From assembly GCF_006345805.1 (NCBI RefSeq), contig NC_042999.1:76756001-76820000 (forward strand): DNA of 64,000 nt, written 5' to 3'. Origin of the DNA: Octopus sinensis (Eukaryota). The notes beneath the pieces are model-generated. The model ran no database searches and was not told where the DNA came from. It was given only the letters and a program-made list of their open reading frames with translations. Positions 1,183-58,970 of the stretch are shown in pieces (the first letter of the stretch is position 1; each line of letters opens with the position of its first letter). A program made the translations under genes and the position numbers.

Positions 1183-1638
1183 CTAAACAGTTTAGAGTTT
1201 GCTACGGATTTTAAATTGATAAATATTTATTTGCCATGATAACAGACGTTTCTTAGTTTGAGTTGTGAAGGATTTCAAAGAATTGTTTATTAGCAGGCTC
1301 CAAAAATAGTAGCCAAATCTTCCTCGTTTCACATTACCATTTTCAAGCAGAAAGGATGTATCGTATAATGTTTATGAAAGAATGGCTGAAAGGTCATAGC
1401 TGGGACGTTTTGGGCCATAAATTTGCTCAGTCGCAGCTGAACAACAAGAATAATTCCTACCAGCGAGAATAACTACTACCAGTAAATATAACAACTACTA
1501 CTGCTGCTACTGCTGCTGCTACTGCTGCTGCTGCTACAACTGTTTTTACTACTTCGGTTTGTGCTCGACTGGGAACTGAAATCTAAACCCATTGCCCACA
1601 ATCCCCAATCATTAAAAAAAGAAAAACAGTTTAAAACA

Positions 1639-1745
1639 TTGTAAGGTATATTTGCCATCTCAATATGGCTAACCACTAAAGGTGGGTGTTACTGTAGCTT
1701 GTAGCCCCAGGAGAACATCTCCTCCAGCTGGCTTTAGGCACACTT
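1639..1745 (-). mobile_element. Diverged fragment of the 352-bp hammerhead repeat family, flanked by a 16-bp direct repeat
   Basis: GTATATTTGCCATCTCAATATGGCTAACC...CCTCCAGCTGGC aligns with 55624-55722. AAAACAGTTTAAAACA occurs at 1623-1638 and 1746-1761. Confidence 0.8.
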
Positions 1746-3059: not shown

Positions 3060-3254
3060 TGTGACCGCGTGTGTACCGTTGGCGGTTTTTTCCTCCGTCT
3101 TCCCTTCTCTGGATCTTTCCTTTTCCTATGTTTCTGACGAAGAGGTCCGCTCGAAACGTTAAACCCTCCTTCTTGCCTTCCTTCCTGAGCGTCCAATAAT
3201 ACTATATTTGTTCTCGCGTTGTTGTGTTTTCTCTTTGTGTTTTCATGTTTGGAT

Positions 3255-8239: not shown

Positions 8240-9439
8240 CACAGGGATTGGAAAAAATAGTTGGAACAGTAGAAATTTAACTCCAATATTTCAATGCGCC
8301 ATTATATTACGAATATCCATACAAATTTCATTGGGAGTGTTTTTGTTTTGGTTTGTAGATGGTTTTATTTATCTAATTTGCTGATTATTTCTATCTCTTT
8401 CAGATTGTAGTATAAATTAAGCTAAGATGCGAAAAAGGGCAAATTGTTGGAACTCGAATGGTAGGAGCTTCCTTCACCAGAACAGCTGAACTATATCAAG
8501 TACCATGGTTGAATTTGAGAAGCAGGGTAAAACCTCCAGCAGGACTTCGAAGCTCACTGAAAGAGTGTTGAATCACATCGTGAAGAAAAATCACCGGACA
8601 ACTGCCCCCAAAGTAACTACAGAGTTGAATCAGCATCTGACTAGCCCAGTTCCGACAAAAACTGTTCGCTGTGAGCTCAATAAAGCTGGATATCATGGAA
8701 GAGATGCCATCAGGAAACCTCTGCTTTCTCATCAAAACATTCAGAAAAGGCTGAATTGGTGTAGAGATCTCAAGGGCTAGATCTCAATGGAAGCAAGTAA
8801 AATTTTCCGACGAGTCCAGTTTTTCTCTTTTCCTCCCTGCAGGGTGAGTTTATGTGTGGAGGCAACCCAGGGAAGCTTTTTATCCTGACTGCCTTCTTCT
8901 TACAGTGAAGCATGGAGGAGGGTCTGTGATGGTTTGGGTTGCCATTTCTTAAAATTCTCCTAGTCCAGTCGTTGCCCTGCACGGTAGGATCAACAGCAAT
9001 GATTATCTGAATATTTTGGGAAATCAAGTCCTTCCCCTGGTCCAGTCATTATTCCTTGATGGTGAGTACAGCTTCCAAGATGACAATGCTTCAATGCACA
9101 CCTCTCATGTTGTTAAGAATTGACATGAAGAGCATAATAGTGAGCTACAATACATGGAGTAGTCACCTTAATCTCCAGACTTCAATATTATTGAGCATCT
9201 GTGGTACATCTTGGAGTGACAGGTTAGAAGTCGTTACCCTCTACCGTCGTGTCTGCAACAGCTGGAACAGGTTTTGCGGGGGTAATGGCTCAAGATTCCT
9301 CTCAATGAAGTCAGGAAGCTGCATGAATCAATTCCTAGACGCAACGAAGCAGTTCAGAAAGCTGAAAGAGAACGAACTCCATATTAAATAAATATTCATT
9401 GAATTTAACACGTGTTCCAATTATTTTGTCCAACCCGTG
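8240..9439 (+). mobile_element. Tc1-like DNA transposon, 1.2 kb, decayed; DD36E spacing
   Basis: Imperfect TIRs CACAGGGATTGGAAAAAATAGTTGGAACA and GTGTTCCAATTATTTTGTCCAACCCGTG, with TA on both sides (8238-8239, 9440-9441) and an internal transposase remnant. Confidence 0.92.
8425..9387 (+). pseudogene. Tc1-family transposase pseudogene
   Basis: HTH region (NHRTTAPKVTTELN...KTVRCELNKAGYHGR..RKPLLS), FSDESSF, TVKHGGGSVMVW, FQDDNASMH, SPDFNIIEHLW; several in-frame stops and frameshifts. Confidence 0.9.
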
Positions 9440-16712: not shown

Positions 16713-16798
16713 GAGGTTGGAGATGGGAAGGATGACTGCCCTTTGCAAATACTGATAGGGCACAGAAAGTGTGTCAATAGCCAGCTGGAGGAGATGTT
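16713..16798 (+). mobile_element. Diverged fragment of the 352-bp hammerhead repeat family
   Basis: GGGAAGGATGACTGCCCTTTGCAAATACTGATAGGGCACAGAAAGTGTGTCAATAGCCAGCTGGAGGAG aligns with about 56142-56210; lies near a (TA)n tract. Confidence 0.8.
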
Positions 16799-55579: not shown

Positions 55580-55622
<43 letters not shown>

Positions 55623-55782
55623 CGTATATTTGCCATTTCAATATGGCTACCCCTAAGGGTGGATGCTACTGTAGTTTTTAGCCCCAGGAGGACACACTCC
55701 TCCAGCTGGCCATAGACGCACTTTCTGTGTCCTGTCAGTATTTGCAAAGGGAAGTCATCCTTCCCGTCTTCAACTTATGATA

Positions 55783-55827
55783 CACACGGACTCGAGTTTC
55801 GAGGTATTGACCTCTCGTCAGCGTGTG
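55783..55827 (-). ncRNA. Type I hammerhead ribozyme (copy 1)
   Basis: Reverse complement reads CACACG-CUGACGA-GAGGU-CAAU-ACCUC-GAAA-CUCGAG-UC-CGUGUG; predicted cleavage between 55789 and 55788. Confidence 0.9.
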
Positions 55828-56079
55828 ACAATCATAGTTGTCGCCGAGAATTAGATTTCCTTCACAAATACTTATACTTTTTCCAGCGTCCACTGTCGCT
55901 GATATTGAAAAAGTGAAATCAAACAATGATAAATATCAAAGTGAGTTATATACAGTAGCGGTAACACATCGTGACGTATATTTGCCATTTCAATATGGCT
56001 ACCCCTAAGGGTGGATGCTATTGGAAAAAGTATAAATATTTGTGAAGGAAATCTAATTCTCGGCGACAACTATGATTGT

Positions 56080-56124
56080 CACACGCTGACGAGAGGTCAA
56101 TACCTCGAAACTCGAGTCCGTGTG
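56080..56124 (+). ncRNA. Type I hammerhead ribozyme (copy 2)
   Basis: Stem I CACACG/CGUGUG, core CUGACGA 56086-56092, stem II GAGGU/ACCUC with CAAU loop, GAAA 56107-56110, palindromic stem III ACUCGAGU, GUC triplet 56116-56118. Confidence 0.92.
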
Positions 56125-56431
56125 TATCATAAGTTGAAGACGGGAAGGATGACTTCCCTTTGCAAATTCTGACAGGACACAGAAAGTGTGTCTATGGCCA
56201 GCTGGAGGAGTGTGTCCTCCTGGGGCTAAAAACTACAGTAGCATCCACCCTTAGGGGTAGCCATATTGAAATGGCAAATATACGTCACGATGTGTTACCG
56301 CTACTGTATATAACTCACTTTGATATTTATCATTGTTTGATTTCACTTTTTCAATATCAGCGACAGTGGACGCTGGAAAAAGTATAAGTATTTGTGAAGG
56401 AAATCTAATTCTCGGCGACAACTATGATTGT

Positions 56432-56476
56432 CATACGCTGACGAGAGGTCAATACCTCGAAACTCGAGTCCGTGTG
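56432..56476 (+). ncRNA. Type I hammerhead ribozyme (copy 3)
   Basis: Same as copy 2 shifted by 352 nt. Stem I reads CAUACG/CGUGUG (C>U retains pairing as a U-G wobble). Predicted cleavage after 56470. Confidence 0.9.
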
Positions 56477-56689
56477 TATCATAAGTTGAAGACGGGAAGG
56501 ATGACTTCCCTTTGCAAATACTGACAGGACACAGAAAGTGTGTCTATGGCCAGCTGGAGGAGTGTGTCCTCCTGGGGCTAAAAACTACAGTAGCATCCAC
56601 CCTTAGGGGTAGCCATATTGAAATGGCAAATATACGTCACGATGTGTTACCGCTACTGTATATAACTCACTTTGATATTTATCATTGTT

Positions 56690-56906
<217 letters not shown>

Positions 56907-58724: not shown

Positions 58725-58970
58725 CAGTTAATCGCTACCAAGAAATGGTTGATAGCTACCAAAAAATAGTTAATTGCTACCGAGAAATAATTTAGTGTTA
58801 ACAAGAAGTAGTTAATTGCTGCCAAGAAATAGCTTATTGCTGTCGGAAAATAGTTGATTGCTAACAAGAAATGGTTATTTGCAACAGTTAATATAGTTAT
58901 TTCTATCAACAATTGGTAAATCGCTACCAAGAGATGATTAGTTACTACTCAGAATAGTTCATTGCTTCTA
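58725..58970. repeat. Degenerate 21-bp minisatellite, about 11 units
   Basis: Consensus close to TAGTTAATTGCTACCAAGAAA. Confidence 0.8.

Follow-up and report, generated by a model that had tools for sequence, protein, structure and literature searches.

An inverted and tandem locus of Octopus sinensis belongs to a new family of retrozymes with ends of the Penelope type

The locus at 55,582-56,903 of the window (the whole 64,000-nt stretch of the Octopus sinensis genome analysed here) is ordinary: one of the hundreds of copies of a retrozyme family that is new and whose ends are of the Penelope type. As judged from its sequence, the repeated 352-nt unit is a non-coding non-LTR retrozyme with a predicted hammerhead, inserted in (AT)n, and it was very probably integrated in the manner of Penelope-like elements (PLEs). 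The value of the finding lies in a rule at the level of the family, described below; it opens a standing question on how PLEs integrate to direct testing.

The preliminary description claimed two long inverted pairings at this locus, and the coordinates of both hold. Positions 55619-55885 match the reverse complement of 56022-56288 over 267 bp with 3 mismatches, across a spacer of 136 nt, and 55619-56020 match that of 56239-56640 over 402 bp with 2 mismatches. An inverted-repeat search of the window recovered the two pairings as 270 and 408 nt at 99%, and a tandem-repeat search gave a 352-nt unit in 1.9 copies over 56022-56689. The length and identity of the pairings exclude a chance origin. 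The two registers amount to one fact, namely that a single inverted arm can pair with either direct unit. The features are listed here, with the unit numbered such that phase 1 is position 56022.

55582-55618, no strand: left (AT)n run (AT x18.5), part of the presumed target site
55619-56020, minus strand: inverted arm, 1.16 units; its outer end, phase 267-270, is the short (untailed) end site
55783-55827, minus strand: type I hammerhead of the inverted arm (RF00163, 32.2 bits, gathering threshold 34, E 8.5e-06)
56021-56023, no strand: head-to-head junction, 3-nt microhomology with one changed base
56022-56373, plus strand: direct unit 1, a full 352-nt monomer
56080-56124, plus strand: type I hammerhead 1 (RF00163), predicted to cleave after 56118 (phase 97)
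56374-56689, plus strand: direct unit 2, phases 1-316; its outer end is the long (tailed) end site
56432-56476, plus strand: type I hammerhead 2, with one change in stem I (RF00163, 28.5 bits, E 1.5e-04)
56641-56689, plus strand: tail of 46-49 nt that separates the fixed end sites from each other; the left outer end lacks it
56689-56903, no strand: right (TA)n run (TA x107.5), part of the presumed target site

The inverted arm runs from phase 267 back to phase 215-218 (402 nt) and the direct arm from phase 1 to phase 316 in its second unit, so that the left outer end of the insert lies at phase 267-270 and the right outer end at phase 316. Both arms predict CTG at 56021-56023, where the actual letters are TTG. 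The junction had been described as 1 nt long, at 56021; that base lies inside a 3-nt overlap with one base changed. The arms also carry private differences from each other.

The match to RF00163 covers the full model in all three copies, at 32.2, 32.2 and 28.5 bits, which is below the cut-off of 34, and an Rfam scan of the window at gathering level gave no match. The miRNA-family matches that Rfam gave in the window, which derive from the inverted repeat and (AT)n, were dismissed. The catalytic core of the hammerhead is intact. Its stem III has two pairs, which lie inside an 8-nt palindrome able to pair between two copies. Several results count against activity of the hammerhead: besides the score under the Rfam cut-off, another local fold has a lower energy (-20.1 vs -12.7 kcal/mol for the hammerhead), and the covariation in 19 distinct sequences, whose core was fixed by the search pattern, did not beat shuffles, although 87% of cells were paired. 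Stem II shows one A-U/G-C swap among the 19 aligned sequences. No ORF of at least 150 aa was found within the unit and no Pfam match in the unit frames scanned, nor did any PLE-protein match occur anywhere in the window. We also considered a truncated copy of an autonomous PLE, and rejected it on the period of 352 nt, the seamless wrap-round (seen in older subfamilies too) and the lack of an RT and GIY-YIG ORF. Elsewhere, the window holds two older fragments of the unit, at 1632-1745 (minus strand, 84% identical) and 16716-16797 (plus strand, 89%), a minimal hammerhead-like motif of a different family at about 3125-3170 (plus strand), similar to one in stretch L093 near 6342, and a 21-nt tandem repeat at 58726-58966 (11.5 copies, 63% matches).

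The family is young and dispersed. A 33-nt core of the unit has 654 exact matches in the 2.72-Gb genome, while the reversed control has 0. A looser core pattern gave 301 further matches, some of them in older subfamilies (about 80-90% identical) that wrap round the 352-nt unit. Dispersed loci contain up to 7.15 units; satellite-like arrays of at least nine units, at 94-98% identity, occur on two small contigs (L016 on contig C4486, and contig C11432). For the survey 105 stretches were fetched, of which 16 were dropped (15 same-site duplicates and one long array filling its stretch). The remaining 89 held 94 insertions; three were cut by the fetch edge, leaving 91 that were classed.

The 3' end lies at a short site (phase 264-277) or a long site (phase 310-321) in 89 of the 91 insertions, nearly always against (AT)n. 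These fixed sites are centred near phases 270 and 313-316, about 46 nt apart, and delimit a tail of 43-49 nt. The inner, junction-side ends are scattered across the unit, with no excess at the predicted cleavage site (6/82 vs 3.7 expected). The suggestion that the blocks begin and end at permuted phases is thus borne out for the junction-side ends but not for the outer ends, which use the two fixed sites. An inverted arm is present in 47 of the 91 insertions, with different junctions from locus to locus; a survey of other copies for 5' inversions, as originally proposed, finds them in abundance.

Of these 47 inversions, 41 have both outer ends at a fixed site and are flanked on each side by (AT)n, where a target-site duplication would be hidden. 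Without exception, one outer end of each is tailed and the other untailed (binomial p 9e-13; the 41 include the locus in the window, as well as two adjacent pairs that may have arisen by local duplication, in which case 39 are independent). The orientation is not fixed: with the longer arm called direct, the counts are 22 and 19, the tailed arm being the longer one in 22. A subset chosen by position on contigs C1 and C2 gave opposite ends in 26/26. At L012/L013 and at L115, near-identical inverted insertions stand side by side with (AT)n between them, which is likely to be local duplication. In the other six inversions an outer end misses the fixed sites, and in five of these (AT)n is absent next to it; later deletion would explain the ends that lack (AT)n. 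The 44 uninverted copies mostly end at the short site (37), with five at the long site (tailed) and two elsewhere, and have (AT)n at the 3' end in 40 cases. Among the older subfamilies (about 80-90% identity), read by eye, the inversions are opposite-ended in 6/6, and at another four inverted sites one end lies outside the fixed positions.

The same layout is found in an autonomous element of this genome. This young element has a 775-aa ORF with RVT_1 and GIY-YIG matches, forms partial tandems with a period of 4272 nt, and has two end sites about 32-35 nt apart, against (AT)n. Fifteen loci were examined, of which seven show both ends of an inversion; these ends are opposite in 7/7, four of the seven loci having been selected for matches on both strands. 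A third, unrelated hammerhead family (29 loci) has opposite ends in 16 of 17 inversions, one tail-to-tail pair being excluded; the remaining locus has two short ends. This family (L069:955-1250, L221-L250) is very AT-rich and frequently inverted, with its own hammerhead-like motif and a tail of about 75-80 nt, and has a 13-nt stretch in common with the 352-nt unit near its long end site. Given two fixed end sites, (AT)n targets, inversion in about half of the insertions and an autonomous RT and GIY-YIG element that behaves alike, the original proposal of Penelope-type integration is well supported.

The genome contains two young PLE families with intact ORFs, of 775 aa (L089, L141-L170) and 781 aa (L081-L095), which are 47% identical; in the hammerhead-like motif of the 775-aa family the second core position is C. 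A comparison with 65 PLE or GIY-YIG loci (35 + 30, the GIY-YIG loci being the best-scoring of 5029 candidates) turned up no autonomous element whose terminal repeat is homologous with the unit; it gave only short matches, plus one separate neighbouring copy. That copy, 88% identical and beside a 775-aa ORF (L089), was rejected as evidence of a partner, being a separate insertion between (AT)n runs. In two further places (L201:6295-8066 and L202:6260-9901) a short inverted piece, with no (AT)n, connects the unit to ORFs of two other PLE families. These joins were not used to name a partner, as they could be template-switch chimeras or target deletions. The GIY-YIG matches at L070 and L071 are unlike PLE proteins, and resemble host nuclease exons of the SLX1 type.

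Sequence variants suggest that a single RNA was the template for both arms of an inversion. Comparisons of the two arms within a locus, at five polymorphic positions, agree in 167/168 cases, as against 8491/14696 (58%) between loci. A survey of 7530 positions in the 41 inverted loci found 47 variants that run through all units on both sides of the junction; 12 of these are rare among the family. The other variants comprise 107 singletons, nine shared within one arm, and two common to both arms in only some units.

We consider it likely that insertion in (AT)n was carried out by a Penelope-like RT-endonuclease priming on both target strands, with one RNA site for each. A PLE protein, supplied in trans, would cut both strands of (AT)n; the two resulting 3' ends would each prime at a different RNA start site, the sites being about 46 nt apart. 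The template would be a monomeric RNA, circularised after hammerhead cleavage and copied around repeatedly to yield 1-7 near-identical units, and the two cDNAs would be joined head-to-head via a few bases of microhomology. Extension of one strand alone would give an uninverted copy, mostly ending at the short site. The 33 simple junctions comprise 20 overlaps of 1-16 nt (counted without a chance control), four blunt joins and nine with inserts of 1-15 nt. The preliminary description had invoked a single template switch; two primings fit better because the inverted arm starts at the second fixed site. Against the mechanism proposed here stand the lack of a homologous terminal repeat among the 65 loci, the six inversions that end off the fixed sites, the five tailed copies among the 44 uninverted ones, and the third-family locus with two short ends.

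The inverted arm could instead arise by fold-back, in which a single primed cDNA folds back at its 3' end, a hairpin is copied from it, and cutting of the copy by the PLE endonuclease at the other fixed site allows it to be joined to the target. This rather unlikely alternative still makes the unit a PLE-mobilised retrozyme, and differs only in the origin of the inverted arm; it too predicts that the arms share a haplotype. It also predicts that one arm lies within the other, as is found in 35 of the 41 loci, while at six neither arm is contained in the other (one of them marginal), although this test separates the models poorly because deletion of the hairpin tip can mimic non-containment. 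Some junctions do have same-phase centres (5/33 vs 2.3 expected) and several contain short fold-back pieces, but 28 of the 33 simple junctions are not same-phase. Self-priming from palindromic junctions is proposed in PMC3846280, and PMC8557442 attributes the tail to endonuclease resolution, whereas PMC11167929 maps both sites as starts of reverse transcription in vitro. Moreover, the uninverted copies are mostly short-ended (37/44), yet the tailed arm is the longer one in 22 inversions, for which fold-back would need large and uneven deletions of the hairpin tip. On balance, the inversions are probably the result of two-strand priming rather than fold-back.

For the source of the tandem units the preliminary description proposed a circular or multimeric RNA. 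The shared variants agree with this, and favour a template of monomer length. There are 12 cases of a rare variant throughout the units of both arms, against one in which it is limited to a subset of units, in register. Since a variant reaches all units most simply via a monomer step, a circle read repeatedly is favoured over a linear multimer, and there is a good probability that the template was a monomer or a circle, although gene conversion could homogenise units too. In two loci (L123 and L136) variants alternate from unit to unit with a period of two, a pattern expected from a dimer circle or from duplication of a dimer. Against the favoured reading count the inner ends, which are not enriched at the cleavage site, and the finding that hammerhead cleavage was unnecessary for insertion in vitro (PMC11167929). 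In the same study uncleaved RNA was the main substrate, which would suit a linear read-through multimer from a genomic array, whose tandem units are simply copied. The long arrays could supply such an RNA, and the autonomous 775-aa element also makes partial tandems. We nevertheless think this source unlikely, because a mutation in one unit of the source array would not reach all daughter units without a monomer step.

A further suggestion, which we put forward tentatively and at somewhat less than even chances, is that the start sites are used in obligate pairs, an enzyme dimer priming one strand per site on a single circular RNA and rolling both out. If true, the tail, the head-to-head inversion and the tandem arrays would be explained in one step, and the metazoan retrozyme circle would be a direct substrate of the PLE enzyme.

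The long hairpin is probably a by-product of integration; the junctions differ at each locus, as expected of one. Read-through RNA of the plus strand was computed to fold into a 402-bp stem in register 2 (-876 kcal/mol), compared to -696 kcal/mol for register 1, and about half of the insertions in the family could fold likewise. In the computed folds either register buries one plus-strand hammerhead, while the second stays clear of the long stem. During transcription the first of these pairings to form could be register 1, and the read-through RNA would then likely not release a monomer. Such folding would suit a hairpin that serves as a functional source of dsRNA, as a substrate for editing or small RNAs that regulates the ribozyme. 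We regard this as very unlikely: the arms point outwards, so that hairpin RNA needs an outside promoter and transcripts started inside the units would run outwards as sense RNA only, and no host exon was found in the window, where one of the 150 ORFs scanned (of 203 candidates) has a Pfam match, to a transposase fragment. This fragment is a Tc1/Tc3-type transposase HTH at 8490-8777 (plus strand; PF01498, E 1.6e-15). Although near-perfect inverted repeats between microsatellites are hard to assemble, an assembly or fold-back read artefact is extremely improbable, because the 47 inversions have different junctions and outer ends that obey one rule in three families, private changes distinguish the arms, and the inversion stops at the element end, the flanks beyond the (AT)n runs being absent among the 25 longest inverted repeats of the window where a fold-back read would tend to make them mirror images.

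The proposed mechanism can be compared with several known systems. In LINE-1 twin priming, primers from two target strands use a single RNA and the products join by microhomology, which gives a 5' inversion; the internal site taken by the second primer varies, and there is no overlap between the arms. Here, in contrast, neither site varies and the same sequence is repeated in both arms.

Metazoan non-LTR retrozymes were described by Cervera and de la Pena 2020 (PMC7229834), and are treated in a bioRxiv preprint of 2026 (10.64898/2026.07.22.740005) as non-autonomous PLEs, on the basis of co-occurrence and terminal-repeat homology; the preprint names the mechanism of mobilisation as open. The unit resembles these retrozymes as described in both sources in being a non-coding tandem unit within 150-450 bp, with a type I hammerhead per unit, in forming dispersed dimers and multimers, and in sharing its genome with PLEs. 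Its short stem III with a palindromic loop is like that of axolotl HHR_Amex1, which cleaves as a dimer (PMC7229834). Whereas these papers infer mobilisation by PLEs from co-occurrence and terminal-repeat homology, the basis here is the anatomy of the insertions, and terminal-repeat homology was not found. The present result provides evidence at the level of insertions that the retrozyme is PLE cargo. In the text searched, the word 'inverted' does not occur in PMC7229834, nor 'tail' in the preprint. We found no report of strict one-tail coupling, or of tails or inversions in a retrozyme, in the sources consulted, though subscription papers (e.g. Arkhipova 2006) and supplements may hold one.

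PLE insertions with an inverted layout and a tail on one end are already known (PMC3846280, PMC8557442, PMC8969392), and the origin of tandem and inverted insertions is called undefined in PMC8557442. As in the insertions of endonuclease-positive PLEs (PMC3846280, PMC8557442), we find a head-to-head inverted and 5'-truncated copy, partial tandems, a tail on one end and simple-repeat targets. Unlike those, the unit lacks an ORF, and the tandem period is the 352-nt unit rather than the whole element. The tail is 43-49 nt, compared to the 30-40 bp reported for PLEs in the same two sources, which call it optional or often one-sided, whereas here it is one-sided in every inversion with fixed ends.

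A further parallel is the in vitro mechanism of Poseidon PAc from Anolis (PMC11167929). The purified PLE protein, a predicted dimer, cuts and extends both strands, prefers AT-rich DNA, and starts reverse transcription at two RNA sites that delimit the tail. The family described here likewise has two sites that delimit the tail, an AT-rich target and a hammerhead upstream of the start sites. In the text consulted, that study reports no difference between strands in the start site used, and no coupling between the two ends of one insertion, whereas the ends in this family are coupled. The strict rule of one tail in three families, together with a common template for both arms, leads to a sharp prediction for this existing in vitro assay to test.
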